Position numbers and translations under genes: made by a program. A DNA stretch of 42,550 nucleotides, taken from Holosporales bacterium. Lineage in GTDB: Bacteria > Pseudomonadota > Alphaproteobacteria > BNTO01. Positions 2,565 to 38,468 of the stretch are shown here, piece after piece (the stretch's first letter is position 1; every line of letters begins with the position of its first letter). The notes beneath the pieces are model-generated. The model worked only from the letters and a program-made list of their open reading frames with translations, was not told where the DNA came from and did no database searches. The stretch spans positions 1-42,550 of the forward strand of contig JAISRQ010000078.1 of assembly GCA_031273545.1 (NCBI GenBank). Direction: 5' to 3'.

Positions 2565-2662
2565 TATACCCCCTATCTTCCCAAATGATTGCGAATTTTT
2601 GGGACACCAAAACACTTACTATCCCTCGTCTTATTTTCCACAATATTTTGGGGCCCTGACAT
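2565..2662 (-). repeat. Family B palindromic element, copy B7 (diverged).
   Basis: Reads CCCAAATGATTGCGAA...AACACTTAC...CCACAATATTTTGGGGCCC, matching the reverse complement of the family B consensus. It directly abuts A1 and ends 12 nt before the MFS stop codon. Confidence 0.7.
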
Positions 2663-2673
2663 CAACTTATATC

Positions 2674-3975
2674 TTATTTACTAGACGACTTAATTTTATA
2701 CCCCATAACGACAATAAGGCTCATCAACCCGAAAACGGAAACAATCCCGCTCGTAACAAACGCCGCACGCATCGACCCCCCAAAGTGGTCAACGATTCCT
2801 CCCATCACTGTATCGCAGATAATCGTCGCAATCGCACACGTAATCCAATATACCCCAAGTCCGGTCCCACGAAGACTTTCAGGAACGACTTCATTAATTA
2901 ATGATAAAAATATATTTTGCGTCGTCCCATATTGGATTCCCCACAAAAGGACGCCCAAATAGAACGCAGGCAGCGCATCCGCCGTAGACAGCACAAGGTC
3001 CGCCAATATCAACGTCCCCATGCCAAGGCACAGCAACCAATAGCGGTTCATCTTATCCGCAATCAACCCCACAGGGTACGAAGACAGAGACCAGGACGCA
3101 TTAAAAACCATCATTACCGTAGGGATCCATTTCGTATCCAGCCCAAAAGAAAACCGCCCATACATAGACAGAAAAGTTTCCCCCATTCGTGAAAGAAGGA
3201 ATATAAAATTGACGATCATGAGCTTCCAAAACGTATTGCCAAGAAGTTTCACGTTCGCCGTACTAAACGTTGGACGGTACTTTGGCGCGTAGCTTGGGAT
3301 CCCGGATAGGACGGCAGCATGTTTTATCTGAGGTGGCTCTTTTACTTGTGTAATAAGCAAAATGAAGCCTATAGTTGCAGGAATTACAGTAAATGCAAAT
3401 AAAATTTGGTAGTTATCATTAGTGACATACATAATAACCGCAGCGACGATAGCGCCCCCGAAGGAGCCAAGGGTGGCAAGGCTCCGCTTAAAGCCGTAGC
3501 ATGCGCCAATCCGCTTAGGGGGAGAAATGTCGCCAACGAGGGCACTTCTTGGGGCGGCTTGAACACCGTTTCCGATTCGCTCAAGCAATCTGGCTAGTAC
3601 GACCGCGATGGGCAGCGTGGACCAAATTGCCAACAAATATCTGGCGATGACAATTACACCATAGCCGCCAACCATCAAAACTTTGCGGCGGCGGAACGCG
3701 TCACTTAGCACGCCAGATGCGAGCTTCATGATGTTCGATGTCCCTTCGGCTATCCCCTCTATAAAGCCAACCTTAATCGAGGCGAGGCCCATTCTTTCTT
3801 TCATATATACACCCCCGAAGGCGTATACAATAACAGCGGCAAAGTTCGCACAGAACATAACAATCCCGATTATCCGAACCATCCGTGGAATGGGCGCGAG
3901 CTTGTTACTATCGGAGGAGGCGACTTTGTCGTTAGTGCCGTTTGACGGCTTGAGATGACTCATGTTTGCAGTCAC
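2674..3975 (-). CDS. Major facilitator superfamily transporter (433 aa).
   Basis: About 12 hydrophobic segments. MFS motif-A-like 'GVLSDAFRRRKVLMVGG' follows the second hydrophobic segment. Confidence 0.75.
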   Translation of the reverse strand: MTANMSHLKPSNGTNDKVASSDSNKLAPIPRMVRIIGIVMFCANFAAVIVYAFGGVYMKERMGLASIKVGFIEGIAEGTSNIMKLASGVLSDAFRRRKVLMVGGYGVIVIARYLLAIWSTLPIAVVLARLLERIGNGVQAAPRSALVGDISPPKRIGACYGFKRSLATLGSFGGAIVAAVIMYVTNDNYQILFAFTVIPATIGFILLITQVKEPPQIKHAAVLSGIPSYAPKYRPTFSTANVKLLGNTFWKLMIVNFIFLLSRMGETFLSMYGRFSFGLDTKWIPTVMMVFNASWSLSSYPVGLIADKMNRYWLLCLGMGTLILADLVLSTADALPAFYLGVLLWGIQYGTTQNIFLSLINEVVPESLRGTGLGVYWITCAIATIICDTVMGGIVDHFGGSMRAAFVTSGIVSVFGLMSLIVVMGYKIKSSSK

Positions 3976-4051
3976 ATACCAGGTCTAAACAATTAAGAGT
4001 AGATTAAAATTTGAGGGAAAAATCAAGTCATTATGTAAAAAAAGAAAAGAG

Positions 4052-6469
4052 ATGAAGAAAAAAAGGAACATTCGCCAGCAATTGATAAAGCGTTCTTATG
4101 ATTTGTCACAACGTGTAAGCTCAGATACAAATGATCCGGCATACAAATATTTGACTAAAATAGATATATATGGAAGACTAGATATAATAAGAATCAATTG
4201 GACACACATTATAATGAAAAAATTAAGTAAAATAAAACGGTGTAGTACCATCGTTTGTATGATGGTGTTTTACTCATTTAGTGCAAAAATATCATTTGGT
4301 GCAGAAATTCGCATGCAACCGCGAGAATTAACTGTGCGATTATCCGAACCTCCCAAGAGTGTAGATTGGGGCGATTATAGAACTTTATCCACATGTATTG
4401 AGGAAATAGATCCCACATATAACGTATATGACGGTAAGACCCAATATCCCCATCTTTTAAATAGTAATTTTTTAAAGGTGGTACACAACAAGTCGAGTGA
4501 TTTACAAAATAAGGTATTTTCATCTAGTAATCTGTTTCTTTCTACTGTGCTGGATGCATCTATCGTTAGACAATCAAACAAAATAGCAACATTTATCTTT
4601 GAAACGCTTGCACATCAGGTAAATGGAACAGAGGCACAGGATGCAACTTTTATTAGAAACTTCAAAGAAAAGGTAATAAATTTCTCTATCAGTTGTTTAA
4701 CACCAGAGCTTTTCGGAACGATCCTTCCTGCAAAAGAAGAGGTCACAAGAGCACTAAATGAGCGTTTCGATCACCCATTATGCAATGGATTTGGAAACCT
4801 AAATGGTGAGCTTTCAGCTGAAGAAACAGCGGAACGAATTGCGCTGATTGCAACAGACCTCGCAACATACCTACAAACACTTCTGAGTAGTGCTTTATAT
4901 AAAAAAATGGGGTTAGATTTTTCTCTTTATTTAAATTGGGATAATTTCCGATGGGAACCAATATGTACTCTAACTGACGCAATTCATCCACGGGGTTATG
5001 GAGGACGTGAAGCACCTTATTTTGAAGAACGTTTAAAACTGGACGAGGCCTTGAAAGATAAAAAATTTGAAAAAACTCCACCAATTATACAACTTGCAGC
5101 AGTTGATCTTGCGAGAGTAATATCAAACGTAAAAGAGTGTACAGCTTATCTAGCAGGCTATCCGACAGATTTGCCAATTTTTGTATCGTTGGCTGATATT
5201 CACGGAGCAGAAATTGATTACGGTACAATAAAGCATACGATATCTCTTTTAAAGGAAGTCCACGATAATATCACAGTTGTATTCAACGGAGATATTGAAA
5301 GAAGAGAAGAACCTTATTCTTCTGAGTCTAGATACCAAGCTAATGCCGCTGGGTGTAATAGCACAATTATTGAAACGTGCGATAAACTTATAATCCCGAT
5401 TAAACAAGAATTAGGGTGCAACGTTATTGTTAATATTGGAAATCACGATATACAGGAAGTAAATCGTTTTGTGTTAGCGTTGGAAAAATTACAGCAGGCG
5501 GAAATTCCAGTTATAACTAATCTTAAAAATAGCTTTAATGACAATTTTGAAGTGGTAAGATCGCCTCTTGGACAAAATGTGAAAGAAAATATAGCACTTC
5601 AACCTATGCTTGAACACTATATTATACAAGGTGATACATTAGTATTCCCATATGTAACAGCCTTTATTAAGTATGGAGGAGGGTCGATTTCAAAAATAAG
5701 CTTCGAAAAGTTATTACGTGATCCCTGTCATGAAAATCTAACAAAGTTATATACAAACCAAACTGGAACAGATCAACGCATGTATCCAGAACGACTATTA
5801 CTTGATGGAAAAGTTAACCCGATCGTTTTAGAAACAGCGAAAATATTTCATGATGCACTGATTGCTCTTAACGAAAGAAATCCAGATGGCAGGCTTAACC
5901 TTGTATTGGCGACTCACGAAAGTCCAATAAAAACACTAAAGTTTTTTCAACTTTGTTCGGTGTTATTTCCAGTGCCCAAACATATCTTGGATCGGCTGTC
6001 CATTACTATGATGACTGGACACGACCATTTAATTTTTGATTTTTATACAACATTGCAATTATTTGGTGAAGAAAATGGAAATGTTCTCCCTGTGGACATT
6101 GGTTGTTCCGCATCTGGCAGGGGAATATATGGTCCTACTCCGCATAAAAAATATGGGTCATATGGGGTTATGTCTCTGCATCTTATTTCAGACCTTGTTG
6201 AATTACCATGGAGCTTGACAAAACGAGAGACAGGAGTAACAAGGAGAGCAGGACAGATTACTCCAGAAGAAAAAGAGGCCTTGCTGACGGATGCGTTTAT
6301 TTCTGTATCTTGTACGTACACTAGTAATAAGGGCGAAGGTCAGGCATCTCTCGCAGATATACTCGCAAGTGTTTGTCGCCAACATATCGTTGGAGAGCCC
6401 GTCGCTGAAAAGCTGTGGATATCCACTATACAAATAGATGAACCTTTAGAGGAAGGTGAGCGCCATTAG
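4052..6469 (+). CDS. Secreted or membrane-anchored calcineurin-like metallophosphoesterase with a ~350-aa N-terminal region of unknown function. The likely true start is ATG 4214.
   Basis: All five metallophosphoesterase motifs occur in order: 'LADIHG' (DxH), 'FNGDIERRE' (GDxxxR), 'IGNHDIQ' (GNHD), 'LATHESP' (H), 'TGHDHL' (GHxH). The internal Met at 4214 is followed by a signal-peptide-like 'MKKLSKIKRCSTIVCMMVFYSFSAKISFGAE'. Confidence 0.7.
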   Translation: MKKKRNIRQQLIKRSYDLSQRVSSDTNDPAYKYLTKIDIYGRLDIIRINWTHIIMKKLSKIKRCSTIVCMMVFYSFSAKISFGAEIRMQPRELTVRLSEPPKSVDWGDYRTLSTCIEEIDPTYNVYDGKTQYPHLLNSNFLKVVHNKSSDLQNKVFSSSNLFLSTVLDASIVRQSNKIATFIFETLAHQVNGTEAQDATFIRNFKEKVINFSISCLTPELFGTILPAKEEVTRALNERFDHPLCNGFGNLNGELSAEETAERIALIATDLATYLQTLLSSALYKKMGLDFSLYLNWDNFRWEPICTLTDAIHPRGYGGREAPYFEERLKLDEALKDKKFEKTPPIIQLAAVDLARVISNVKECTAYLAGYPTDLPIFVSLADIHGAEIDYGTIKHTISLLKEVHDNITVVFNGDIERREEPYSSESRYQANAAGCNSTIIETCDKLIIPIKQELGCNVIVNIGNHDIQEVNRFVLALEKLQQAEIPVITNLKNSFNDNFEVVRSPLGQNVKENIALQPMLEHYIIQGDTLVFPYVTAFIKYGGGSISKISFEKLLRDPCHENLTKLYTNQTGTDQRMYPERLLLDGKVNPIVLETAKIFHDALIALNERNPDGRLNLVLATHESPIKTLKFFQLCSVLFPVPKHILDRLSITMMTGHDHLIFDFYTTLQLFGEENGNVLPVDIGCSASGRGIYGPTPHKKYGSYGVMSLHLISDLVELPWSLTKRETGVTRRAGQITPEEKEALLTDAFISVSCTYTSNKGEGQASLADILASVCRQHIVGEPVAEKLWISTIQIDEPLEEGERH

Positions 6470-6473: not shown

Positions 6474-6527
6474 ATGAGCTACTCGCTTCAGGACCAACAG
6501 GTGAGCTACTCGCTTCAGTACCAACAT
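6474..6527. repeat. 27-bp direct tandem repeat, two copies.
   Basis: atgagctactcgcttcaggaccaacag followed by gtgagctactcgcttcagtaccaacat, immediately after the metallophosphoesterase stop codon. Confidence 0.9.
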
Positions 6528-6586
6528 CTGTTCGTATCAAAAGTCTGTAACCTTTTGGGAAAGTAGGGGTCTACCAAGGCCCCTCC

Positions 6587-8419
6587 TCACTTAATCCGCG
6601 CCACAGCAGCCGCAAGCGCCTTCCCTCCAATAGGAGCAGCTGCACGTCCGCCGCTTTCGCCATGCTCCACCACGACCACGACTGCAAAGCGCGGACACTC
6701 CACTGGGGCATACCCAATAAACAGCGCGTGGTCCTTCAAGTGATATGGCCGCTCAATCTGCTTCCCGCGCGCGCGCTCCTCCTTTGTGATGCGGCAGACC
6801 TGCGTGCTTCCGGTTTTGCCCGCGATTGACAGATTATTGTTGCGTATTGTGAGAGCTGTTCCTTTTTGTACAACAGATGCAAGCCCTTCCCTGACGATGT
6901 TGAACGCCGCCTTGGAGTAGTCCATCGCTTCGGCGTCAACGTTTAGCATATTACTTTCTGAACCCAAAGTAGGGGACCCAACTTCTGAACCCAAACTAGG
7001 GGACCCAATTATATGCGGATAAACCCTTTTCCCGCTCGCGATACGCGCCGTCATGACAACCAACTGTAGCGGAGTCGCAGACAAATGCCCCTGCCCAATC
7101 GCCAAGTTAATGACCTGCCCAATGTCGCGCTTCTGCCAGACCCTTTTGGATGGCGGAATCTCCCCCTTCTTTTCTTCAGGCAACTCTATATTTGTAAGCA
7201 CTCCAAAACCAAAGTCCTTCGCCGCCTCAATTATGCTTTCGCCCCCTAGTTTTACTGCAACATTGTAAAAGAATACATCGCATGACTGTTCCATTGCCTT
7301 GATTATATCAAACGAGCCATGCCCACCATATCTCCAGCGATGACAATGAAACCTGTGCTTATTAACCTCGTAATATCCGGGGCAAAAAAAAGTCGTCTTC
7401 CTAGACACTGTGTCATTATTTAGTGCCGCTAACGCGACGATCGGCTTAAATGTCGACCCAGGTGCATACATCCCCGACACAGAGCGGTTAATTAGCGGCA
7501 AATCCTTATTCCCCAGCAACTCTTGCCATTCCTGCTGAGTAATCGTTTTCGCAAAAACATTTGGGTCAAATGCCGGGACAGATACACTTGCCAAGATCTC
7601 ACCCGTGTTTATGTCCATAACTATCGTCGCCCCACAACGCACATCCTTCATTATGTCCATCACATCCATTTGAAGATCCATGTCTATCGTAAGGTGAATA
7701 TCCCGCCCCTTTACCGGCTTCTTTTCATCAATCAACCTTATCATATGACGCGCGGCATTTACTTCGACCTGCTTTATTCCGATCTGCCCCTGAAGTTCAG
7801 AATCACAAGCGCGCTCGATTCCCATTTTCCCCAAACATGCATCCAGCACCTTTAGGTTCGCATTTTGCTTTATGTCGTTTTGATTTGGCTGCGTAACATA
7901 CCCCACAAAGTGACAACACGCCGCCCTATGAGGGTATACCCGAATAATCTTTGGAAGGACGACTACGCCTGTAATTTGCGAAGACAATGTTTCTATTTCG
8001 AGTATTTCGTTCCAAGTTAGTTGTTCTTTGATGGGAATGACTGATGTGGGCCCAACGTCGTGTACTTGTTTATTTACATAAGTTGAAAAAGGAATACTTT
8101 TATCCAGGCTAAGTTTTTCACACACTATATTCCAACTTGAATGCTTATACTGATTCAGGTCGATCGCCGCCCGATAGCTTAGCCGGGACGTAGCGAGGAT
8201 TCTGCCTTTGCGATCGAAAATTGTCCCCCTAGGAGCAGCCGAATACGTCGTATAAATACGGTTTTTATCAGAGAGTAATTTATATTTATCATTATTTATT
8301 ACCTGCAAAAAAAATAAACGCCCCACCAACAATATAAATATTAAAGCGATAACCCCAAAGCATATGAATACACGTTTGGGAAACAATCTTGGGTCTTTAT
8401 CTTGGTAATTTGTCTCCAT
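6587..8419 (-). CDS. mrdA: Penicillin-binding protein 2 (elongasome transpeptidase).
   Basis: N-terminal membrane anchor. SxxK 'GSTFKP', 'SCDVFF' at the SxN position, and 'GKTGST' (KTG). 610 aa. No rodA is adjacent. Confidence 0.9.
   Translation of the reverse strand: METNYQDKDPRLFPKRVFICFGVIALIFILLVGRLFFLQVINNDKYKLLSDKNRIYTTYSAAPRGTIFDRKGRILATSRLSYRAAIDLNQYKHSSWNIVCEKLSLDKSIPFSTYVNKQVHDVGPTSVIPIKEQLTWNEILEIETLSSQITGVVVLPKIIRVYPHRAACCHFVGYVTQPNQNDIKQNANLKVLDACLGKMGIERACDSELQGQIGIKQVEVNAARHMIRLIDEKKPVKGRDIHLTIDMDLQMDVMDIMKDVRCGATIVMDINTGEILASVSVPAFDPNVFAKTITQQEWQELLGNKDLPLINRSVSGMYAPGSTFKPIVALAALNNDTVSRKTTFFCPGYYEVNKHRFHCHRWRYGGHGSFDIIKAMEQSCDVFFYNVAVKLGGESIIEAAKDFGFGVLTNIELPEEKKGEIPPSKRVWQKRDIGQVINLAIGQGHLSATPLQLVVMTARIASGKRVYPHIIGSPSLGSEVGSPTLGSESNMLNVDAEAMDYSKAAFNIVREGLASVVQKGTALTIRNNNLSIAGKTGSTQVCRITKEERARGKQIERPYHLKDHALFIGYAPVECPRFAVVVVVEHGESGGRAAAPIGGKALAAAVARIK
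6956..7009. repeat. In-frame 27-bp tandem duplication inside mrdA.
   Basis: ttctgaacccaaagtaggggacccaac followed by ttctgaacccaaactaggggacccaat. It encodes the duplicated 'GSPSLGSEV/GSPTLGSES' near the PBP2 C-terminus. Confidence 0.9.
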
Positions 8420-8499
8420 TGAGGAATAACCTTGGGTCTTTATTCTACTAATTTATTTTTATTACTATGACAATTTTGCACAATCATATTTATTTTTAT

Positions 8500-8571
8500 T
8501 TAACACAACTACATTTACTTCAACTTAACGACTATGTTTATTTCAACTTAACACAACTACATTTACTTCAA
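8500..8571. repeat. Three tandem ~24-bp units. Units 1 and 3 are identical, and the array overlaps the 3' end of the PAAR-like gene.
   Basis: ttaacacaactacatttacttcaa occurs at 8500-8523 and 8548-8571, with a diverged unit ttaacgactatgtttatttcaac between them. Confidence 0.85.
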
Positions 8572-8952
8572 GTTAGTAAGGGACACTCCGGGAAAAGCTA
8601 CTTTGATTACGCCTCCCCAGTTACACATAACAATTGAGTCGCTGTTCAATATAGGCATATTTTTTATCAATATGGTCGGACTAAGCGGGAGCCAAGGCGA
8701 CGCCGTCACAGGAATGCAAGGCATAGGGGTAAGCACTCCAAGCGCCGCAGCGGTAGCCGCGATCACCATCGGGTTCGCCATGCTCATGCACATGCCAAAC
8801 GGCATTATGTTCAGGAGGGGGACATGATCCATTATTGTTGCGCCCGGCATGTTTTTGAATAGCGTCATATTCGTCGGCAGGACCATGAACGGCCCAGGAG
8901 CAGCGCCAAATGTGCATTGGCAGAGGCCTCCCATTAATACTGGCATTCCCAT
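8563..8952 (-). CDS. PAAR-like (DUF4280-type) T6SS spike-tip protein, 129 aa.
   Basis: By-eye match to the DUF4280 pattern: 'CQCTFGAAPGPFMVLP', 'NIMPFGMCMSMANPMVIAATAAALGVLTPMPCIP...SPW', 'SIVMCNWGGVIKV'. The size is typical. Confidence 0.75.
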   Translation of the reverse strand: MGMPVLMGGLCQCTFGAAPGPFMVLPTNMTLFKNMPGATIMDHVPLLNIMPFGMCMSMANPMVIAATAAALGVLTPMPCIPVTASPWLPLSPTILIKNMPILNSDSIVMCNWGGVIKVAFPGVSLTNLK

Positions 8953-9193: not shown

Positions 9194-9341
9194 AAAAAAA
9201 AGCTCCACCCCAACCACCACCTTTGACCCTATCACAAAAAGGTTAATGAAAAGTAAATACTAAAAAACGGCAAAATTTCCATTAACGGTTCCTTTACCTT
9301 TTTCTGTTAGGATGTAAGGGTGGCGGTGGGGTACACCCCTC
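9194..9341 (+). repeat. Family A palindromic element, copy A2.
   Basis: Aligns with A3 over ~150 nt (shared core CCTATCACAAAAAGGTTAATGAAA.GTAAAT.CTAAAAAA...TTAACGGTTCCTTTAC). Right end is GGGTGGCGGTGGGGTACACCCCTC. Confidence 0.8.
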
Positions 9342-14960: not shown

Positions 14961-15028
14961 CTAATCAAGAACCACATCTACGCCCTGTCTAAAAAGGGAC
15001 AGCAGGAATATTTTTTATAGTTTTATTT

Positions 15029-27888: not shown

Positions 27889-28992
27889 TTATTGAGTGTT
27901 CGCATTTTCGCGTCCTTGTCCATTTCTACGCGCTAGCATCTCTGCAAGGGACTCACCTTCTCCTCTCGTTTCAGTCGCTTTGCCCATTGGTCTAGATGCT
28001 GGTGGCGTAGTTTGAATTTTTTCTGGGGGCGAGTCCAAAACTTGTGCTGGCGGCGGAGTTTGAGCCATAACTGGCGGCGAAGGAGGGGTTTGAACTAGAG
28101 CCGGTGGTGATGCCAAGACTGATGCCATCTTTTGCGTAACAACTTTACTTTGTGCAAGAATTATAGCGGGAGGCAGAGTCTGAACTTTTGCCGAAGCCGA
28201 GCCCGTAACTGATGCTGGAGGCAGAGTCTGAATTTTTTCTAGCGTCGAGCTCACAACTGGTGCCGGAGTTGAATCAGTTTTAGGGGTTAGTTCTACACGC
28301 GGCGTACTTTTTAGTATTTCCCTTAATTCTCGTCTCTCACTAAGAGACATTCCTGGACCTCTCGTTTGTTTCGGTTTTCCCAGGGCTCGTGAATGTGGCG
28401 GTTCTTGTCTGGCAGAATCACCCCAAGGCCCTTTATTAGATGAGTTAGCCTGGGAATCATCAGAAGAGCTTGTCGACATACTATAACTATACTCACTTCC
28501 GAAATTATTTTGAATTAATGGCCCACCGGCAAGGGAAGTGTTGTTTGATTCGGTTGGACTTTGTCTGCGCGGTTTTTTTGTAATTTTAAACCTAGAAGAT
28601 GACTGCTGTTTTTCATCAGAAGAGCTTGTCGACGTACCACAACTATACTCACTTCCGAAATTGTTTTGAACTAGTGACTCACCAGCGAGGGAAGTGTTGG
28701 TTGATTTTGTTGGACTTTGTCTGCGCGGTTTTCTCGTAACTTTTAATTCAGTACGAGAATACTGCGTATTTATTTGATGTTCGCCTGCAAGTAAAGGGGG
28801 GTCTAATTCGATTGCGCCTTGTTCGTGCGATGGTGTCCCTTTAATTGGATTTTTAAAAATAGGCGGCTGAGTGTTAATCAACGGTTCAACCAAATCGTCT
28901 ACTACTTGACTTGCGTGCAACACAACGCACCTAAATGAAGTCACCGCAATAAAAAGCGATAAACACAAAAATGCTTTCCTTCCTATAAACAT
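27889..28992 (-). CDS. Secreted Pro/Ser-rich repeat protein (367 aa).
   Basis: Signal peptide 'AFLCLSLFIAVTSFRCVVLHA'. A 52-aa unit occurs twice ('K.T.KPRRQSPT.S.NTSLAG..L.QNNFGSEYS...STSSSD'). C-terminal 'K.QTLPPA / QTPP' proline repeats are present. Confidence 0.6.
   Translation of the reverse strand: MFIGRKAFLCLSLFIAVTSFRCVVLHASQVVDDLVEPLINTQPPIFKNPIKGTPSHEQGAIELDPPLLAGEHQINTQYSRTELKVTRKPRRQSPTKSTNTSLAGESLVQNNFGSEYSCGTSTSSSDEKQQSSSRFKITKKPRRQSPTESNNTSLAGGPLIQNNFGSEYSYSMSTSSSDDSQANSSNKGPWGDSARQEPPHSRALGKPKQTRGPGMSLSERRELREILKSTPRVELTPKTDSTPAPVVSSTLEKIQTLPPASVTGSASAKVQTLPPAIILAQSKVVTQKMASVLASPPALVQTPPSPPVMAQTPPPAQVLDSPPEKIQTTPPASRPMGKATETRGEGESLAEMLARRNGQGRENANTQ
28457..28768. repeat. 156-bp tandem duplication (coding) inside the Pro/Ser-rich gene.
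   Basis: tcatcagaagagcttgtcgac occurs at 28457 and 28613, and aactatactcacttccgaaatt at 28485 and 28641. The period is 156 bp, equal to 52 codons. Confidence 0.9.
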
Positions 28993-29131: not shown

Positions 29132-29158
29132 ACCCACTTCTTATTTGAAGAAGTGGGT
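29132..29158 (-). terminator. Rho-independent terminator downstream of the 29269-30456 gene.
   Basis: 11-bp stem acccacttctt / aagaagtgggt with a 5-nt loop. On the minus strand it is followed by TTTATGTGCTTTTT. Confidence 0.55.
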
Positions 29159-29268
29159 CTATTTGTACCCTAAGTGATTATAGAATTTTTTTATCCAACA
29201 AAGACTTACGATTGCTTAGTTTTTGTCCAACAACCTTTAATAATTCTGGATACTAGAATTACGCCCGT

Positions 29269-30456
29269 CTATTGACCGCTGTTTTGGGCATCTTGCTGCT
29301 CCTGCCTGTCTAATCTACTTACTACCTGACTGAATCGTTCCATGTGCATCTCTAATAACCGCTCCAAATGTTCAACCCTTCTGTCTATTTCCACGAAATG
29401 TTCAACTTGTCTGTTTATCAATTCTTGGAAATATTCCAGTCGTGCATAGATCACTTGCTGTTGATCTATGGACAAGGTATACGCAGGCCCACCATTCCAA
29501 GCGGTTGACTCGTAATCATTTGGGTAAGGAGGCGGCGCAAAATATTCCCTCCCCCTCTCGCGCGCAACATCCGATAACGCCGGAATGCTCATATCTGTTG
29601 TGTCATTCGTATCAACAATACGCGCACAATCTTCCATGAAATTAACCTCGCGCGAAGCTCCCCAACCGCGCGCAATATATTCCGGAGTCTCGAATAAATG
29701 CGGACTAAAATCGGAATCGTGAGTGTCTTCATACTCTCCTTCCTCGTTTATCCATCGCACGTTAGGGTCAGACTCAAAGTACCTTTCCGTTGCTCCACGA
29801 TATCTGCTTGCCGTTCCATCGTATCTGCCCCTCCAAGGCCCCGTTTCCGCATAGTCAAGGCTGTAGAACTCTGCGAAGTTCATTGAACGCGAGATAGGTA
29901 AGTCGCTTGCGTCACTTTCTTCTGCCGGAAATAGTGAAGCAAAAAGATCGCTACCTGCGAAAACATCAGCATTCGCACCAATTTCAAACGGTTCTGCAGT
30001 CATGGGGCTACAGTGTTCATTATATTCATCAAGGATTGCTGTAATGTAATGTGAAACTCTACGCATTACCCTATCTAGTCCCAAACAAAATCCTGGAAAA
30101 TGCCTGATCAATGAACGTATTATCGCGGAAGTTCCTTCGTCCGACACCCTATCTGCTGATGTTTCAGCCGCAGGGACATGTTGCACTCCGACATCAGCTT
30201 GTCTGGGTAGTGTTGATGGTCCCTCAGGCATCAATGATTCAGCCGCTATTGGTTCTTCAGCTTGCCTTCGCGACCGCTCGAGTGTTGATGTATCACGCGT
30301 ATATTCGTCTGAATCGCTACTTTCCTCTTCAGGTGACCCATAAGAAGGCCACAATCGAGATAAATCTTCTTGTTGATTTGATGCCAAACAAACCTGTAGT
30401 TCGCTTATTATAATAGTAGATACAATTAAAAATTTATTACTCATGATAGTTCTCAC
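29269..30456 (-). CDS. Secreted acidic protein with a C-terminal coiled-coil-like region (395 aa; ATG 30444 is a more likely start than GTG 30456).
   Basis: Signal-like 'MSNKFLIVSTIIISELQVCLAS'. Asp/Glu-rich body. C-terminal heptad-like 'LEYFQELINRQVEHFVEIDRRVEHLERLLEMHMERF'. I recognise no family. Confidence 0.55.
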   Translation of the reverse strand: MRTIMSNKFLIVSTIIISELQVCLASNQQEDLSRLWPSYGSPEEESSDSDEYTRDTSTLERSRRQAEEPIAAESLMPEGPSTLPRQADVGVQHVPAAETSADRVSDEGTSAIIRSLIRHFPGFCLGLDRVMRRVSHYITAILDEYNEHCSPMTAEPFEIGANADVFAGSDLFASLFPAEESDASDLPISRSMNFAEFYSLDYAETGPWRGRYDGTASRYRGATERYFESDPNVRWINEEGEYEDTHDSDFSPHLFETPEYIARGWGASREVNFMEDCARIVDTNDTTDMSIPALSDVARERGREYFAPPPYPNDYESTAWNGGPAYTLSIDQQQVIYARLEYFQELINRQVEHFVEIDRRVEHLERLLEMHMERFSQVVSRLDRQEQQDAQNSGQ

Positions 30457-30699: not shown

Positions 30700-31773
30700 A
30701 TGAATTGCAGTAATATTCGAAGCTTAGCTCTTTTTTGCGTTTTGTCAGGAGCATTTATTTTATCAGGTTTTTTTGACATGTCTGTTAACGCGGCTGACTT
30801 TTTTACAGGTGCGGAAAGGGATCAAGCTGTATACTTTCCCCAGGTATTTCCACAAGTTCCGCCAATTTGCCTAAAGGATGCCCAAGGTCCCCTAACTTTT
30901 GCGGATAAAGTTAAGTATTATAAACTAGCTGCGGATCAAGGTGATACGATAGCGCAATTAGAATACGGAAATTGCTTGCGCTATGGATTTAGCGTAAAAA
31001 AAGATTTGGTTGAGGCTGTCAAGTATTATAAATTAGCTGCAGATCAAAAGCATCCAATCGCGCAATGCAGATACGGCTGGTGTTTAGATAATGCAGTTGG
31101 CATAAATCAGGATTGTGTTGAGGCTGCGAAGTATTTTAAATTAGCTGCAAAGCAAGGTAACGCAAACGCGCAATGCAATTACGGTCTCAGCTTATCTAAT
31201 GGGCGTGGCGTGGATGTGAATTTTGTTAAGTCTGCGAAGTATTATAAAATGGCGGCGGATCAAAATTATCCCGCTGGGCAGTTGTGTTATGGATGGTGTC
31301 TAGAGAAGGGAATTGGAGTGGGTAAGAATTCGGTCTTGGCTGCTAAGTATTATAAATTAGCCGCAGACCAGGATGAGATGAATGCGCAGTTCTCTTATGG
31401 AAAATGCCTATTTTATGGGATTGGTGTTGAGAAAGATTTGATTGGAGCTGTTAGGTACTATAGACTGTCGGCAGATCAAGGTAACGCTAAAGCACAATTC
31501 GATTATGGGTGTTGCTTAGAAAGAGGGTGTGTGGTGCCTGAGAATTCGGTCATGGCTGCAGAGTATTATAAGTTAGCAGCAGACCAAGGTCACGTAGACG
31601 CGCAATTTAATTACGGATTATGCTTAGAGGACGGAAGTGGTGTGCCTAAGAATTTGGTCAAGGCGGCTAGGTATTATCGACTTGCTGCGGATAGTGGCGA
31701 TGCGGAAGCACAAGCTGGATATGATCGCTGTGTAAAGTTACAGAAGAGAATAGAAAGGCGCAGAAAAAAATAA
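30700..31773 (+). CDS. Secreted Sel1-repeat protein with eight tandem ~36-aa repeats.
   Basis: Signal peptide, then eight occurrences of 'A.KYYKLAADQG...AQ..YG.CL..G.GV.K'. Confidence 0.85.
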   Translation: MNCSNIRSLALFCVLSGAFILSGFFDMSVNAADFFTGAERDQAVYFPQVFPQVPPICLKDAQGPLTFADKVKYYKLAADQGDTIAQLEYGNCLRYGFSVKKDLVEAVKYYKLAADQKHPIAQCRYGWCLDNAVGINQDCVEAAKYFKLAAKQGNANAQCNYGLSLSNGRGVDVNFVKSAKYYKMAADQNYPAGQLCYGWCLEKGIGVGKNSVLAAKYYKLAADQDEMNAQFSYGKCLFYGIGVEKDLIGAVRYYRLSADQGNAKAQFDYGCCLERGCVVPENSVMAAEYYKLAADQGHVDAQFNYGLCLEDGSGVPKNLVKAARYYRLAADSGDAEAQAGYDRCVKLQKRIERRRKK

Positions 31774-31843: not shown

Positions 31844-33214
31844 ATGGAAGTGTTAGCTGAATCTATGCGAGAAAATACTATGCGCGAAAAATTGGTGGAG
31901 CTTATAGCGGCGGCGTTGCGCAACAAAAGCATCCCTGCTGACAGGGTTTTTCAGAATTTTTGCAAAAAGCGAAATCTTGGAAGCAAACAAAGAAAAAGCC
32001 TGTCTGATTCGTTTTTCGATTTTTGGCGCAATTATTGGAAATGTGCGTTTTTGGTTGATGCTCAAGGATATGATGAGTTTGCCACGAATACTTCGTCAGA
32101 CCAACTAGCAAGCGTAGCAGAAGTAGTTATTTTAAGTAAAACAGAAATGATTGAGGCAAATAAGTTAGTCTCAGCGTTCGAACGGCTTAGTGCATATTCC
32201 TCGGATGTATTTCCGATCTCTGCTCAAATGAACATGCATCCAGGCATTTGGGCGCTATTCACGGAATCTTTTCCAAGCGAGGAGTCTGCAATTTCGGTTG
32301 CCTCGTACGTTCCTCCTTCCGTTGATATCCGCGTAAATACATTTGCAGGCTTCACAAAAAGCGCAGTAATTCGTCATCTTTGCGGCCAAGGAATCATCGT
32401 AGACGAGCTCCCGTACGACGCCTTACGAATACACAAGCGCGCCCCTTTGACTCGCGACGCCTTATATCAAGCCGGCGCCTTCGAGGTCCAGGATTTTGGC
32501 TCGCAAATAATTTCGCGCTTATGCGACGCTAGGGTAGGTGAATGCGTGTTAGATTATTGCGCAGGCGGGGGCGGCAAGGCGATTGCGATGTTGAATGACA
32601 CAAACGGAAAGGCGGAGCTTACACTGACGGACGTCAATGCGCCTAGGCTTGCAAAGGCCAACGCACGAATTTCTCGCATTCCAAAGGCGGTCGTGAGTTT
32701 CCGCTCTGAATTAGATATTCCGCTCGCTTCGTTTGATCTCGTCGTCGTGGATGCGCCCTGCTCTGGGGTCGGGACGCTCCGTCGTAACCCAGATAAAACA
32801 GTGCATTTACGTGACTCAGATATATTTGCTTTTGCAGAATTGCAGCTTAAAATATTGCGAAATGCAGCTAAATTTGTAAAAAAAGGGGGACGATTGGTTT
32901 ACATAACGTGCTCCTATCTTAAAGCAGAAAACGAGGATGTCGTGCAAGCATTCGTGGCGCAGCAGTCAGGTTTTGATTTTGTTGATATGCGCGAAGTTTG
33001 GAGGCGAAAATGCGCCCTAAGTTTCCCGGATCATAGTTCTTCACAGGGGATAAGATTGACGCAGACGGACGGATTTTTTATTTCAACCATGCAGTATATG
33101 CCGAGGGCCCTAAAGATTGCGGAAAAGAAGATCGAAAATAGTAAGTGTTTTACGGGCCAAAACGACCGCAATCATTTGGGGGGTATACCGGAGGGCAAAA
33201 AATGTGGACCATAA
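31844..33214 (+). CDS. rsmB: RsmB/Sun-family rRNA cytosine-C5 methyltransferase. Its last 39 codons are supplied by family B repeats.
   Basis: SAM motif 'LDYCAGGGGKA', 'VVVDAPCSGVGTLRRNPD', 'LVYITCS', 'TDGFFIS'. Confidence 0.8.
   Translation: MEVLAESMRENTMREKLVELIAAALRNKSIPADRVFQNFCKKRNLGSKQRKSLSDSFFDFWRNYWKCAFLVDAQGYDEFATNTSSDQLASVAEVVILSKTEMIEANKLVSAFERLSAYSSDVFPISAQMNMHPGIWALFTESFPSEESAISVASYVPPSVDIRVNTFAGFTKSAVIRHLCGQGIIVDELPYDALRIHKRAPLTRDALYQAGAFEVQDFGSQIISRLCDARVGECVLDYCAGGGGKAIAMLNDTNGKAELTLTDVNAPRLAKANARISRIPKAVVSFRSELDIPLASFDLVVVDAPCSGVGTLRRNPDKTVHLRDSDIFAFAELQLKILRNAAKFVKKGGRLVYITCSYLKAENEDVVQAFVAQQSGFDFVDMREVWRRKCALSFPDHSSSQGIRLTQTDGFFISTMQYMPRALKIAEKKIENSKCFTGQNDRNHLGGIPEGKKCGP
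33095..33187 (+). repeat. Family B palindromic element, copy B4a (inside the rsmB ORF).
   Basis: TATATGCCGAGGGCCCTAAAGATTGCGGAAAAGAAGATCGAAAATAGTAAGTGTTTTACGGGCCAAAACGACCGCAATCATTTGGGGGGTATA. Confidence 0.8.
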
Positions 33215-33276
33215 ACTGAATAATCACAAGTGTTTGTTTGGTTAAAAAGTCCGTAATCTTTTGGGGGAGTAAGATA
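33184..33276 (+). repeat. Family B palindromic element, copy B4b. It is tandem to B4a, shares the TATA junction and contains the rsmB stop codon.
   Basis: TATACCGGAGGGCAAAAAATGTGGACCATAAACTGAATAATCACAAGTGTTTGTTTGGTTAAAAAGTCCGTAATCTTTTGGGGGAGTAAGATA. Confidence 0.8.
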
Positions 33277-33385: not shown

Positions 33386-35320
33386 TTGTCAGCAACTGCG
33401 CGTAATTTTTTAATTTGGTCGGTTCTTTTCGTGACAATCTTTGTTGGCGTGAGCTTTTTCACAGAACAAAGCGAAAAGATGGCTGAAAATTGTCTAACGT
33501 ACTCACGTTTTGTCGAATCAGTCAACTCTGGAGATGTGGCAGAAGTCACAGTTCAAGGGCAAAAAATTGTGGGAAAAACAAAAAAGGGCGAAGAGTTTTC
33601 TACGTACGTGCCGTTTCACAGCCCGGCATTACTACAAGACATGGTCAACCACGGGGTAAACGTAATCGCCAAACCTGTGGAATCTGGATATTCTTTCTGG
33701 GCTTTTATAATTCCTTGGATTCCTTTGCTCGTATTGGTCGGCTTAGTTTTTTATTCAATTCGCCAAATGCAATCTAATGGAAATAAGGCGATTGGCTTTG
33801 GAAAATCTTCTGCAAAAATTGTGGAGGATAAAACCGTGATGACCCGGTTTGAAGATGTTGCCGGGGTGGATGAGGCCAAACAAGAGCTTCAAGAGGTCGT
33901 TGATTTCCTAAAGGATACACAAAAATTCCAGAAACTCGGAGGGAAAATTCCCAAAGGTATCTTGTTGGTTGGTCCTCCTGGGACTGGCAAAACTTTATTG
34001 GGAAGAGCAATCGCTGGCGAGGCTGGCGTCCCGTTTTATAGTATGGCAGGCTCAGACTTCGTCGAAGTGTTCGTTGGCGTAGGAGCAAGCCGGGTTCGAG
34101 ATTTATTTGGCCAAGCGAAGAAAAACAGCCCCAGTATAATCTTTATTGACGAAATCGACGCAGTTGGCCGTCGCCGTGGTTCTGGGTATGGTGGAGGAAA
34201 CGACGAAAGAGAACAAACTTTGAATCAAATGCTTGTCGAAATGGATGGTTTCGATGTGTCCCAAACTGTTATAGTCGTTGCTGCAACAAACAGGGCTGAC
34301 GTCCTTGATAACGCGCTTTTGCGTCCTGGGCGATTTGACAGGCGCGTGGTCGTCCCTCTCCCTGACTTAAAGGGGAGGGAAAAAATACTAAGCGTACATA
34401 CGGCCAAAGTGCCGCTGGATAGCTCTGTTCGCAAGGATATACTCGCGCGCGGGACCCCAGGTTTTTCGGGGGCCGACTTAGCAAACTTGGTGAACGAGGC
34501 TGCCCTTATGGCCGCAAAGCGTGGGCAGGCGAACGTCACAATGAAAAACTTCGAAGAGGCTAAGGACAAAGTCCTCATGGGATCCGAGCGGCGTTCCTGG
34601 GTTATGACAGACGAGGAAAAGAAACTTACGGCCTTCCACGAAGCTGGGCACGCGATCGTGTCTCTTTTTACTCCAGGGTCCGACCCTATACACAAGGCAA
34701 CGATCATCCCACGTGGGAATACGCTTGGTATGGTTGTCAATTTGCCGGAGACGGACCGAGTGTCTGTTACGTTTGAGGCGTTACAGTCGAACATTATGAC
34801 TACCATGGGCGGAAAAATCTCTGAGGAAATGACATTTGGCAAACACCGCGTTACAACCGGTGCCGCTTCAGATATAAAAGCCGCAACAAGTTTGGCTCGC
34901 AGGATGGTGACTGAGTGGGGGATGAGCGAACGCCTTGGTTTTCAAAATTGCGACTTTATTGAATCTTACGGGGTGAGAGAGATTTCTGATTCAACTTCGC
35001 GGATTGTGGACGAGGAGGTCAGCGCCATTCTCACGTCTTGTTATGAGAAGACTCGCGCTATCTTGATTGAACACCAAAAGCAGTTGCACGATTTGGCGAA
35101 CGCGTTGCTAGATCGAGAAACTCTTACGGGGGAAGAGATTAAGCTTGTGTGCAATGGGGAGACACTTCCGCCAATTTTAGAAGAAGAAGAACATGAGCCA
35201 GCGAAAAACACAGAGGAAGGTGTCACGACATCGAGTTCGTCTACGTCCAAGAGACGCACCACAAAAACCGTGATTAAGAAAGTAAAAGGGGCGCTTCCTG
35301 ATGATCCGGATTTGCTATGA
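33386..35320 (+). CDS. ftsH: ATP-dependent zinc metalloprotease FtsH (TTG start as in the ORF track; the exact start is uncertain).
   Basis: Two N-terminal TM segments, Walker A 'GPPGTGKT', 'IIFIDEIDA', SRH '[18 protein letters not shown]', and the zinc site 'HEAGHA'. Confidence 0.95.
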
Positions 35321-36975
35321 AAAGGTTGTTTGGAACAGATGGAATTCGAGGGCAGGCTAATGCGTGGCCAATGACGCCGGATGTAATCGTGCAAGTTGGG
35401 CGCGCCGTCGCAATTTATTTTCAAAAAAACAGCGCTTCTTCCCGGAAAAGAAAGTCTATATATACCGGGGTTTCTAATGAATGCGGACAAGAAACTGAAA
35501 AATCACGGGAGTTTGCTCTTACTAAAAGTCCGCAATTATTTTGTGAGGGGGTAGATGAGGTGCGCCCTTTACCTCATAAGCATTTTAACCCGTATGTAGA
35601 TCATGCGAATCATCAATTTACGGTAGTCATCGGGAAAGATACGCGGCTGTCTGGCTATATGATTGAGTCGGCGCTTGTTTCGGGGTTGGTGTCGGAGGGC
35701 GCGAACGTAATCATGCTGGGCCCTGTGCCGACGCCTGCGATTGCAATGTTAGCGAGGTCCTTGCGCGCGGATGTGGGCATCATGATTTCCGCATCTCATA
35801 ACCCGTATTTTGACAACGGAATAAAGTTTTTTGACGAGGACGGCGTAAAATTTTCTTCGGAGGTGGAGGAAGAAATAGAAGGATTGATTGAAAGATTGAT
35901 GGAGAACAGGGCTGAATCTCCGAGCACAGGGGAATACGGTGCAGGAAATGGATGTGAATATGACGCGGGAAATGGGGCAGCGAAAGGGGGGAGGCAAAAG
36001 TCCGATTCGTCAGCAAACGCAACAAAGGAATGCGGAAAGTCCATACGGTTGGACGATGCGGCGGGGCGCTATGTTGAGTTTGCAAAATCTACATTTCCAA
36101 AGAAATACGACTTAAGTGAAGTAAAAGTTGTATTAGATTGCGCCAACGGAGCTGCGTATAAAGTTGCGCCGCGTATCTTTTGGGAGCTTGGGGCGACGGT
36201 AATTCCGCTTGGGGACGCGCCAAACGGACGCAATATAAACGACCATTGCGGAGCGCTTTACCCTAAGCCAATGCAGGAATGCTTAAGTGCCGTTGGCGCG
36301 GATGTGGGGATTGCGTTGGACGGGGATGCGGATCGGCTGCTGCTTACGACAAAGATAGGCCAGATTATTAATGGGGATCAAATTTTGGCGTTGATTGCCA
36401 AAAATTGGGCCGGTTTTTCGCAAAATGTCGAGGGGCTCCGCCGATTAACGAATGGAGTTGTATCGACATGCATGTCAAATATTGGATTAAAAAAGTATTT
36501 AAAAAGCTTAAACATTGAACACTTTGAAGCAAAAGTTGGCGATAAAAATGTTGTGGATCTTATGCGGAAAACTCAAAGCAATTTAGGCGGCGAAGAATCT
36601 GGGCACATAATACTGAGCGATTACACGACTACTGGAGATGGAATAATTGCGGCGTTGCAGGTGCTTGGCATTGCGAGAGAACAAGGAGTGGGTCTGGATG
36701 ATCTGTTCCCGCTGTATGTCCCGTGTCCTCAAGTTACTAAAAATTTCGCAATAAATGCATCTATTACGGGTTCGTTTATCAAAGATTTGCAAGATGAAAT
36801 TATGCAACAGGTTCAAGGGGATGGTTGCGTTGTCATCAGGAAATCTGGGACGGAACCACTTTTAAGAGTGATGATTCAGGACGAGGATATGCAAAATATT
36901 GAGCGCATTTTTGATGAGATAGTTATGCCAAAGGTAAATGAAAAACTGTCTGCATGCAAAATCCCCATAAGTTGA
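35317..36975 (+). CDS. glmM: Phosphoglucosamine mutase with two insertions (552 aa where about 445-450 aa is usual).
   Basis: 'FGTDGIRG', 'GKDTRLSGYM', the phosphoserine loop 'SASHNP', 'LDGDADR', 'GGEESGH', 'RKSGTEPLLRVM'. ATGA overlap with the ftsH stop. Confidence 0.9.
   Translation: MKRLFGTDGIRGQANAWPMTPDVIVQVGRAVAIYFQKNSASSRKRKSIYTGVSNECGQETEKSREFALTKSPQLFCEGVDEVRPLPHKHFNPYVDHANHQFTVVIGKDTRLSGYMIESALVSGLVSEGANVIMLGPVPTPAIAMLARSLRADVGIMISASHNPYFDNGIKFFDEDGVKFSSEVEEEIEGLIERLMENRAESPSTGEYGAGNGCEYDAGNGAAKGGRQKSDSSANATKECGKSIRLDDAAGRYVEFAKSTFPKKYDLSEVKVVLDCANGAAYKVAPRIFWELGATVIPLGDAPNGRNINDHCGALYPKPMQECLSAVGADVGIALDGDADRLLLTTKIGQIINGDQILALIAKNWAGFSQNVEGLRRLTNGVVSTCMSNIGLKKYLKSLNIEHFEAKVGDKNVVDLMRKTQSNLGGEESGHIILSDYTTTGDGIIAALQVLGIAREQGVGLDDLFPLYVPCPQVTKNFAINASITGSFIKDLQDEIMQQVQGDGCVVIRKSGTEPLLRVMIQDEDMQNIERIFDEIVMPKVNEKLSACKIPIS
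35457..35555 (+). repeat. Family B palindromic element, copy B5, in frame inside glmM.
   Basis: TATATATACCGGGGTTTCTAATGAATGCGGACAAGAAACTGAAAAATCACGGGAGTTTGCTCTTACTAAAAGTCCGCAATTATTTTGTGAGGGGGTAG. It is translated as 'SIYTGVSNECGQETEKSREFALTKSPQLFCEGV'. Confidence 0.75.
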
Positions 36976-37033
36976 AATACGAAAAAAAGCTATTATATAA
37001 AAGCATAGGTGAACCTATTTAAAAGGATGTTTC

Positions 37034-38338
37034 ATGTCACTGCTGATTAGATACATTTGTAAATTTGCTGTTGTTTTATTTTGTGTGCCGATGGTGAGCG
37101 ATGCTGTTGCTTTTCGTTCTGGCAAAAGTTCGCAACAATCAAAGAAAGTCTCATGCGAAGTAATTAAGGAATTTGTAGCTGAAGCGCTGAATTTCCCTAC
37201 GTCGAACATTGTGTATGCTGAATCGGAGGTCGGAGGACAGAAGCAGTGTGAGGCGGACGTTGTGCCTGCTAGCGTGCTGATCTATCCAGTGAATTATCGT
37301 CAGAGACGCGAATGTGTTGCTGGATGCCATTTGCCACAGTTATTAAAAATAAGGGCGGGAGATGAGTATTATTTTTTAAAAATTAATAAAGATCCATTCA
37401 ACGTAGAGATTAATAATGCTTCTTTTCTTATTAGGCTAATTGGCAAAGATCACCCCAATGGCGTTGTTGAACTTGGGACAGTAAACGGGACGCGTATTCA
37501 AGCTATATTTCCCGTGAAAATTGGAATTGCCGATATTTCCAATCAAAAAATGGTTTCTGGTTTTAGCTGCATTGACCCATATTCTAGCGAAGAAGTTTTG
37601 GAAGACGCATTAGACGTTGAAAGCAGCAATCCCAATTATGTAGGATTTCAGTTCATGAAAATGGCGCCGGGTAAAACACTAATTTCGTTATCAGAAAACG
37701 CTATATGCAGAGGGGAACGAGATGTAGCAAAAATTGCGTATGATGGATACGTTGAGGCTTTTCGACTTTTTAATGAAATGGGTATTAAACATGGAGATTT
37801 TTCGTTGCGGAATGTAATGTACGGCGACAATGTCTTGTCTGTTATGGATTGGGGCGGAGCGTCTGATGATTTGGATAAATTAATTGCATGGTGTACAGAG
37901 CGTTTTTGCCCTGAACTAGACTTCTTTTTGGATGTGATGGAAAAAGCACTACGAATCAAACCACGTATATTTCCTGATCTCATGACTCGGCTGCTTTCAG
38001 CGTATGACGTGGACGGTGGTTACAGTATACGAGATGTTCGATGTGACATTCTTCGGGCGTGTTGGCGTTTTCGTCCATATACTAGTTTAGTGGATTTTGA
38101 CAGTTCAATTATTGATAGCCTCAAAGAAAGCGTCCATTCCAAAAAATATGGTAAATTCCTTGGCGGCGTAGTATTTAATTTGCTCTGCTGCAAACAATGT
38201 CCCAAAGAATACGAAGAATTAGTTATCAATGAATGTGAGCGTAGATGTGTGCTTGATCCAAAGTTTAAGTATATCAACGGTAATGATCTATTCGACGTGG
38301 CGCGTAGTCTGAATGAAGCAGCTAGCGCAAAAGGATGA
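37034..38338 (+). CDS. Secreted protein-kinase-like fold protein (434 aa).
   Basis: Signal peptide 'ICKFAVVLFCVPMVSDAVA'. 'YYFLKINK' is VAIK-like. Catalytic-loop-like 'IKHGDFSLRNVMY' is followed by the DFG-equivalent 'SVMDWGGA'. The pattern resembles the APH/choline-kinase/Kdo-kinase superfamily. Confidence 0.5.
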   Translation: MSLLIRYICKFAVVLFCVPMVSDAVAFRSGKSSQQSKKVSCEVIKEFVAEALNFPTSNIVYAESEVGGQKQCEADVVPASVLIYPVNYRQRRECVAGCHLPQLLKIRAGDEYYFLKINKDPFNVEINNASFLIRLIGKDHPNGVVELGTVNGTRIQAIFPVKIGIADISNQKMVSGFSCIDPYSSEEVLEDALDVESSNPNYVGFQFMKMAPGKTLISLSENAICRGERDVAKIAYDGYVEAFRLFNEMGIKHGDFSLRNVMYGDNVLSVMDWGGASDDLDKLIAWCTERFCPELDFFLDVMEKALRIKPRIFPDLMTRLLSAYDVDGGYSIRDVRCDILRACWRFRPYTSLVDFDSSIIDSLKESVHSKKYGKFLGGVVFNLLCCKQCPKEYEELVINECERRCVLDPKFKYINGNDLFDVARSLNEAASAKG

Positions 38339-38371
38339 ATACTAAGTGCGGCAAGTCAAATGAGGCAAATG

Positions 38372-38468
38372 TATCTACTCTCCAAATGATTGTGGACTTT
38401 TAGCACAGCGAATGCTTGTGATTTCAATTTCTTGTTCGCACTCATTTGTGGTTCCGAAATGTGCGTAT
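38372..38468 (-). repeat. Family B palindromic element, copy B6 (diverged).
   Basis: TATCTACTCTCCAAATGATTGTGGACTTTTAGCACAGCGAATGCTTGTGATTTCAATTTCTTGTTCGCACTCATTTGTGGTTCCGAAATG aligns with the reverse complement of B4b. Confidence 0.65.

Follow-up and report, generated by a model that had tools for sequence, protein, structure and literature searches.

The stretch of DNA analysed here (the window; 42,550 nt, 42.8% G+C) comes from what is, by its protein sequences, an uncultured Holosporales-lineage (Holosporales-like) alphaproteobacterium: the closest GlmM proteins share ~57% BLAST identity with that of the window, and several are named "MAG: Holosporales bacterium" at NCBI (MAG, metagenome-assembled genome). 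Dispersed through the window in both orientations is a ~95-nt repeat with TATA at either end, here called family B, which lies in spacers between genes and, in several cases, within open reading frames (ORFs), including that of glmM. We conclude that family B is probably a non-autonomous mobile element, namely a miniature inverted-repeat transposable element (MITE) that behaves like a Rickettsia palindromic element (RPE).

A previous interpretation made from the letters of this DNA (the sequence-only reading) had placed one and the same element at nine positions. When these intervals were extracted, one recognisable unit was seen in all nine, and a nucleotide hidden Markov model built from the copies and run over the window with nhmmer found ten full-length matches (E = 1e-16 to 1e-26), comprising each of the nine, with refined coordinates, and a tenth that the sequence-only reading did not list. 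Together with 3-4 decayed remnants, this gives ~13 family B copies in 42.5 kb, a density of about one per 3-4 kb. A repeat finder recovered the family independently as direct family D2 and as inverted pairs I3-I6, I8 and I9, and a degenerate family B pattern (38 bits) matched 8 of the 10 copies, with 0 matches in 100 dinucleotide-preserving shuffles. The observation is therefore confirmed and slightly extended, with the copies located as follows.

2569-2663 (-): full copy; nhmmer E = 3e-19; inverted repeats I1, I2, I5
14868-14961 (-): full copy; nhmmer E = 2.5e-19
15889-15983 (+): full copy, master-like, best preserved; nhmmer E = 1.3e-26; minimum free energy (MFE) -30.7, z = -3.5
24318-24414 (-): full copy, master-like; nhmmer E = 7e-26; inverted-repeat pair I3 at 99%; flanks unrelated
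25798-25891 (+): full copy; nhmmer E = 3e-21
26657-26751 (+): full copy, the tenth; nhmmer E = 4e-21; repeat family D2
33097-33187 (+): full copy, first of a tandem; nhmmer E = 3e-21
33184-33276 (+): full copy, second of the tandem; nhmmer E = 8e-20
35461-35555 (+): full copy, in frame in glmM; nhmmer E = 5e-21
38370-38461 (-): full copy; nhmmer E = 1e-16
29678-29739 (+): remnant, 5' half; nhmmer E = 8e-6
29158-29252 (-): decayed copy, nearly full-length; nhmmer E = 1e-4
6519-6570 (+): remnant, 3' half; nhmmer E = 0.0065
21872-21920 (-): probable decayed copy in recF; nhmmer E = 0.09 taken alone

The unit ranges from 91 to 97 nt, and preserved copies consist of 5'-TATACCGGGGCCCCCAAAGATTGCGG, a centre of ~45 nt and CCGTAATCATTTGGGGAGTGGGTATA-3'. 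Its ends form an imperfect 26-nt terminal inverted repeat, in which TATACCGGGGCCCCCAAAGATTGCGG and the reverse complement of the 3' end, TATACCCACTCCCCAAATGATTACGG, match at ~20 of 26 positions; these inverted ends are of the TATACCGGGG type. The arms begin TATACC/GGGGCC and end ...GCGG or CCGT..., and the copy at 24318-24414 is palindromic right to its ends (TATACCGGGGCC...GGCCCATATA). Both the TATA at each end and the tandem pair with its common TATA junction, as had been described, are seen in the flanks of the copies. Six-frame translations of the copies give peptides of at most ~31 amino acids (aa), which means that the unit has no transposase coding capacity.

Copies of very different ages are present. 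Positions 15889-15978 and 24325-24414 are 99% complementary over 90 nt, the similarity stops at the element borders and the flanks are unrelated, in agreement with the sequence-only reading, which had counted 1 difference in 90 positions and proposed recent copying. A third such locus is provided by a protein from outside the window, P0132, whose first 26 of 26 residues are those of the master copy in antisense frame B; it then continues into a different flank, which also differs from the window ORF at 15029-15967. Because there are at least three nearly identical copies, the master appears to have been active recently. The other copies had been called much more diverged, and the median pairwise identity over the aligned element is indeed 63% (range 52-94%), from which it follows that family B is old, with one very young pair.

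The clearest in-frame copy lies in glmM (35317-36975, +; TIGR01455, E = 6e-149), whose product has 552 aa compared with ~445-470 aa for a typical GlmM. When the window protein is aligned to PDB GlmM, aa 2-34 and 102-198 align and aa 35-101 are extra; in alignment A1 with nine homologues, the ~40 additional residues at the insert occur in the window protein alone, and at the DNA level window positions 35423-35574 correspond to just 38 nt in one relative (L013). None of the ftsH-glmM loci of the relatives (L011-L014) holds a family B copy. The glmM copy (35461-35555) accounts for aa 49-80, with YTGVSNECGQETEKSREFALTKSPQLFCEGV as its translation in sense frame 1. In the master copy three stop codons interrupt that frame, all of which are missing here, and the window protein (P0001) contains an exact 31-aa element match (local phmmer E = 4e-10). 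The catalytic motifs SASHNP, DGDADR and GEESGH are intact, and AlphaFold2 models the core with confidence (pTM 0.77) and leaves the insert (aa 40-90 and 93-97) as coil with pLDDT < 50. The insertion point would thus be compatible with the host fold, as a predicted disordered loop, in the one host protein modelled.

A second housekeeping gene, recF (20859-22106, -), probably holds a decayed in-frame copy. Its product aligns to PDB 5z69 at aa 3-62 and aa 117-373, and between these blocks (aa 63-116) it gains ~29 residues over the structure. The extra stretch starts exactly at the family B remnant at 21872-21920 (TATACCGAGGCTCACGATGAATGCGAATC..., TATACCGAGG, TATACCGAGGCTCACGATGAATGCG), and the remnant peptide YTEAHDECESKPEES is in the same codon phase as YTGVSNECGQETEKS of the glmM copy. 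In the rsmB-like gene, the element is found at the end of the reading frame: aa 417 (nt 33094) is the last residue of the RsmB domain, after which the ORF continues for 38 codons (Y-MPRALKIAEKK..., sense frame 2) into the head-to-tail tandem 33097-33187/33184-33276, using a stop codon at 33214 within the second copy. Since the domain ends where the copies begin and the ORF reads on into them, the native stop has been displaced by the insertion. A hypothetical ORF (29269-30456, -) reads the remnant at 29678-29739 on the antisense strand (DSDFSPHLFETPEY).

The sequence-only reading had placed copies inside two housekeeping ORFs. That claim stands for glmM, a clean in-frame case; the copy near the capsid gene (26657-26751) lies most likely in a spacer, between the stop codon of the prohead protease gene (26598) and the probable capsid start (M73, nt 26778). 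The capsid protein aligns from aa 126 on to the capsid of RcGTA, the gene transfer agent of Rhodobacter capsulatus, and the capsid ORF was rejected as an in-frame host.

Other inserts were seen in GlmM and in a second window protein. GlmM has a further low-complexity insert at aa 199-248 (35911-36061), which is modelled as disordered, and MurD is 639 aa long, compared with ~440 aa in solved homologues, with inserts at aa 149-181, 223-298 and 513-597 (38992-39091, 39214-39442 and 40084-40339). None of these inserts recurs in the window and none belongs to family B; they could be ancient elements that have become too degraded to recognise. Among GlmM proteins from Holosporales-like contigs, P0006 (L011, 10001-11512) has an unrelated GEGQ-rich low-complexity insert of its own, and P0024 has an unrelated alanine/glycine-rich insert of ~100 aa at its C-terminus. 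Insert-tolerant housekeeping proteins may be common in this Holosporales-like lineage.

The remaining copies lie between genes; the sequence-only reading had already placed copies in gene-end spacers. Three occupy convergent or tail-end spacers: the copy at 2569-2663 starts 10 nt past the stop codon of an MFS transporter gene (2674-3975, -), that at 14868-14961 lies in the convergent spacer between trkA (13296-14729, +) and the ORF at 15029-15967 (-), and that at 25798-25891 lies upstream of a prohead protease gene similar to those of gene transfer agents (GTAs). Two are found between same-strand genes, namely the protease-capsid copy at 26657 and the copy at 38370-38461, between the ORF at 37034-38338 (+) and murD (38548, +). 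Two more are in upstream regions: the copy at 24318-24414 is upstream of the ORF at 24486-25367 (+), and the copy at 15889-15983 is between the ORF at 16133-17338 (-) and the 5' end of the ORF at 15029-15967 (-), whose first ATG is located within the copy. The decayed copy at 29158-29252 sits in the spacer between the ORFs at 27889-28992 and 29269-30456, and the remnant at 6519-6570 in that between the ORF at 4052-6469 (+) and a PBP2-like gene (6587-8419, -).

A second repeat family, family A, has units at 2403-2567, 9207-9338 and 25367-25531, which are ~130-165 nt long and 71-81% alike. As had been noticed, family B copies occur beside it: the copy at 2569-2663 abuts the unit at 2403-2567, and the unit at 25367-25531 sits 267 nt from the family B copy at 25798. 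This adjacency suggests a build-up of mobile elements in particular spacers.

Family B also occurs in proteins from other contigs. We built a peptide profile (A3) from antisense frame A, peptide YTHSPNDYGFFRRSNAYNYSFSGPQSLGAPV (xSPNDYGFFxxxNAYxxSxSGPQSLGAPV), a frame that stays open in 6 of 10 copies in the window. Under leave-one-out testing, 5 of 9 copies scored 36-52 bits. Searched with this one frame, a library of 1.84 billion representative proteins gave eleven matches at E < 0.001, six of which are clear family B members; the other five, repeat proteins matched in several short stretches, were set aside. The six members are as follows.

P0121: the peptide forms the C-terminus
P0122: MreC-like protein, antisense frame A
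P0126, with cluster member P0133: pseudouridine synthase RluB, antisense frame A
P0127: small ORF
P0128: two adjacent copies
P0130: TsaE, antisense frame A

In TsaE the peptide lies within a 45-aa insert between residues 70 and 73 of PDB 5np9, and in RluB within 63 extra aa between residues 163 and 179 of PDB 4lab. A second, indexed search with the peptide profile returned P0132 alone. At least six further family B loci are thus known from proteins of other contigs, and the expectation of the sequence-only reading that more copies exist elsewhere is borne out by proteins of other Holosporales MAG contigs. All seven element-bearing proteins (the six members and P0132) are JGI/IMG records, and NCBI also lists three of them, P0122, P0133 and P0130, as "MAG: Holosporales bacterium" under locus tag LBQ43_, the element-bearing NCBI accessions being MDR1907804.1, MDR1907813.1 and MDR1907977.1. 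The seven proteins probably belong to the MAG of the window or to a very close one. The sites in glmM (PDB GlmM and nine homologues), tsaE, rluB and recF are empty in homologues.

The DNA collections that were scanned yielded no such loci. Across 185,579 GTDB species genomes the pattern had 4 singleton matches, roughly as many as chance alone would produce, with 0 in Rickettsia or other alphaproteobacteria; JGI metagenome contigs contained 6 singletons, likewise at chance level, and IMG/VR 0. None of the GTDB and JGI singletons was confirmed by nhmmer, and blastn against plasmids found no family B match. A weak match in L007 (15.5 bits), a locus pre-selected by the pattern, was judged to be chance. 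The window's own contig is unmatched in the scanned DNA collections, so they do not hold this genome.

A stable palindrome placed after genes might be a functional structured element selected at each locus, for instance a small RNA, a hairpin that stabilises or terminates an mRNA, or a site to which a protein binds. Most intergenic copies do lie just downstream of a gene, ~7 of 10 copies are oriented like the gene upstream of them, and Coxiella has small RNAs that derive from MITEs (PMC5896051). In the best copies a single long hairpin forms, with an MFE of -28 to -31 kcal/mol and a sense-strand z of ~ -2.4 to -3.9 (z is -4.1 for the antisense strand of the best copy). The sequence-only reading had held that each copy can fold into one hairpin, which is true of the best copies, whose arms are complementary, but not of the old ones: diverged copies lack the long hairpin (z ~0 to -1.8), and RNAalifold found no consensus long stem among the copies. 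With a hand-specified long stem on the copy alignment, the arms pair in 70.8% of cells versus 70.7% in column shuffles (79% in helix 2 of that stem), and the count of double-sided changes is not above shuffles. Because arm pairing is at the shuffle level with no excess of double-sided changes, the palindrome is best seen as ancestral and eroding copy by copy, not as a conserved RNA. Nothing in Rfam reached the gathering score, the sole match at E up to 10 being STnc480 noise (16.7 bits vs a threshold of 72); on this count and on covariation, then, the identity with a structured noncoding RNA that would have told against the sequence-only reading did not appear. No recurrent promoter-like or terminator-like site, including a recurring T-run terminator, was found in the seven copies within 14.5-34 kb. 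Copies also occur in both orientations and within coding sequence, and we regard selection for a structure at each locus as very unlikely. Most copies appear instead to be old and decaying neutrally with loss of the hairpin, as the folding of the diverged copies in part shows.

Could the conserved unit be the peptide, a ~31-residue cassette spread by recombination, with the intergenic copies as its debris? The frame A peptide is recognisable in several unrelated proteins, besides being open in the window copies mentioned above, but at least four frames on both strands are used among the hosts (sense frame 1 in glmM and recF; antisense A in tsaE, rluB and the mreC-like gene; sense frame 2 in the rsmB-like gene; antisense B in P0132). 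Most copies are intergenic with stops in most frames, and the peptide is modelled as disordered coil in GlmM. Conservation of the DNA, palindromic ends included, is enough to account for the likeness of the peptides, with no selection on them required, and a protein module seems highly improbable. A further candidate, whose size and shape fit, is a REPIN-type unit, in which two inverted arms resembling repetitive extragenic palindromic (REP) sequences are moved as single-stranded DNA by a RAYT (IS200/IS605-like HUH) transposase. REPINs and REP doublets are likewise ~100-nt hairpin units of two inverted arms, abundant in extragenic spacers, and family B has one long hairpin across the whole ~95-nt unit, a high density and a preference for post-gene spacers. 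Owing to G-T wobble positions, 8 of 10 copies fold better on the sense strand than on the antisense, and this could reflect a single-stranded intermediate. However, neither arm end carries a GTAG or CGTC tag, the tags that define two large REP superfamilies (PMC3733652), the arms are neither palindromes nor short stem-loops themselves, and some copies lie within coding sequence. No RAYT gene is found in the window, nor is a Y1/HUH transposase among the window ORFs scanned, and TATA-bounded ends, a TATA-sharing tandem and insertion at a stop codon suit TA targeting better. Family B is thus unlikely to be a REPIN.

The preferred reading, a MITE with RPE-like behaviour, agrees with the features of family B in detail. 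It is a short non-coding unit well under 500 bp with terminal inverted repeats, it has many dispersed copies in both orientations, including a young pair, and its filled sites are matched by empty sites in homologues, albeit of distant relatives. Like an RPE, it is a palindromic repeat that adds a peptide in frame (in glmM, recF, TsaE, RluB and the MreC-like protein). On these points the sequence-only reading, which had called the element RPE/MITE-like, is upheld.

Rickettsia palindromic elements RPE-1 to RPE-10 were reportedly described by Ogata et al. in 2000 and 2002. They are known to insert in frame into unrelated metabolic genes (PMC10969869). Family B resembles them in being short, palindromic and densely repeated in an alphaproteobacterium with an obligate host association, with copies in spacers and in frame in unrelated housekeeping genes, where they add a peptide that appears compatible with the host fold, and with no cognate transposase nearby. 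It differs in being shorter (~95 nt vs ~100-150 nt), in its Holosporales-like rather than Rickettsia host, in its use of at least four reading frames across the two strands, and in its clear TATA-bounded inverted ends. Family B appears to fall outside the named RPE families, from which the GTDB pattern scan and the host, rather than a consensus alignment, set it apart.

The Correia elements of Neisseria (CREE/nemis) are also MITEs, with ~26-nt terminal inverted repeats that start TATA, and are dispersed in spacers at high copy number. They duplicate a TA target, and a TA duplication of this kind would explain the TATA ends of family B and its shared-TATA tandem most economically. Correia elements are ~100-155 bp long and carry promoters and an IHF site, and as RNA they are cut by RNase III (PMC10969869). 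Family B, in contrast, has no recurrent promoter in the seven copies and no sequence similarity to them in the GTDB pattern scan, and lying in frame within essential genes is not characteristic of Correia elements. The intracellular bacterium Coxiella burnetii has two MITE families that overlap ORFs, QMITE1 and QMITE2, and QMITE1 encodes short peptides. QMITE1 is 300-400 bp long with 2-3-nt direct repeats, and QMITE2 is 150-190 bp long with 7-11-nt direct repeats and a GTAG REP (PMC5896051). Both are larger than family B, their host is an unrelated gammaproteobacterium, and the GTDB species genomes gave no pattern match. The GC content and the Sel1 genes had at first pointed to a Coxiella QMITE, an identity rejected on size, repeat structure and the alphaproteobacterial host.

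How family B moves can be proposed in outline. Because it encodes nothing, its movement must depend on a transposase supplied from another part of the genome. This transposase would presumably recognise the inverted ends and insert at TA-rich sites, among them post-gene spacers and stop codons; insertion at the TATA of a copy already in place would give rise to tandems. The TATA ends, the TATA-sharing tandems (33097/33184 and probably P0128) and the stop-codon insertion would favour a TA/TATA target like that of Correia elements or of MITEs derived from IS630/Tc1, the latter already proposed by the sequence-only reading, and no longer direct repeats were seen in the flanks of the copies. A TA-targeting DDE mechanism is quite possible on these grounds, although we put it short of probable. 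Two antisense frames are stop-free in the master, and sense frame 1 is stop-free in a subfamily; with such frames, copies that insert in frame in loops of essential proteins are tolerated, and a length near a multiple of three (~93-96 nt) may aid their survival. Tolerated copies persist as extra, probably disordered segments of ~31 residues.

Several points weigh against a mobile element and its proposed mechanism. No transposase family (Pfam, NCBIfam) was recognised among 31 non-overlapping window ORFs of at least 100 aa, as the sequence-only reading had also stated for the window, nor did the window ORFs include any transposase or autonomous partner whose ends match; 8 of the 31 had no family match of any kind. 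As a palindrome, TATA may equally well be the end of the repeat or a TA/TATA duplication. The near-identical copies could in principle stem from gene conversion between copies. The relatives that give empty sites are only ~57-66% identical in GlmM, so these sites show insertion at some time, not recent mobility. The covariation test rests on 10 copies, which limits its power, and beyond the window family B copies are known as peptides only.

In-frame palindromic repeats in essential genes have so far been treated largely as a peculiarity of Rickettsia, and a 2024 review of prokaryotic MITEs only speculates on similar MITE-mediated protein evolution in other prokaryotes (PMC10969869). MITEs that invade coding sequence are already known, and family B is new as a family. 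A Holosporales-lineage element present in at least five conserved genes (glmM, recF, tsaE, rluB and mreC-like) in several frames adds a second lineage, in which one can ask whether such insertions are tolerated or useful, which enzyme loops accept ~31 residues and which transposase is involved. We suggest, tentatively and with some doubt, that palindromic DNA which invades proteins may have arisen independently a second time, outside Rickettsia, as family B, whose ~31-codon length and stop-free frames on both strands would have been selected for survival in essential genes. If this is true, Holosporales-type endosymbionts would be a second natural system for selfish repeats that create protein segments. 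At a practical level, such a repeat density inflates ORF calls, shifts predicted starts and stops, and fragments symbiont metagenome assemblies.

Some neighbouring genes are of interest in their own right. The prohead serine protease (Peptidase_S78) and HK97-type capsid genes at 26029-27881, whose closest capsid is that of RcGTA (PDB 6tb9, E = 6e-60), stand as an isolated pair of GTA-like head genes, separated by a family B copy, in a symbiont-like genome; this RcGTA-type pair fits an alphaproteobacterial host. Repeats of other kinds occur within several ORFs. The ORF at 18845-20305 (-) contains a long array of 21-nt (7-aa) tandem repeats beside a weak HAD-hydrolase match, and the ORF at 27889-28992 (-), which has no family match, contains internal repeats of 156 nt and 48 nt. 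A DUF4280 (PAAR-like) protein gene (8563-8952, -) adjoins 43-48-nt tandem repeats at 8376-8575. Sel1-repeat arrays are typical of host-interaction proteins in intracellular bacteria, and Sel1-repeat proteins are encoded in the window by the ORF at 30700-31773 (+), with seven 108-nt repeats, and by that at 15029-15967 (-); at the L011 locus of a relative, a Sel1 gene also adjoins glmM.

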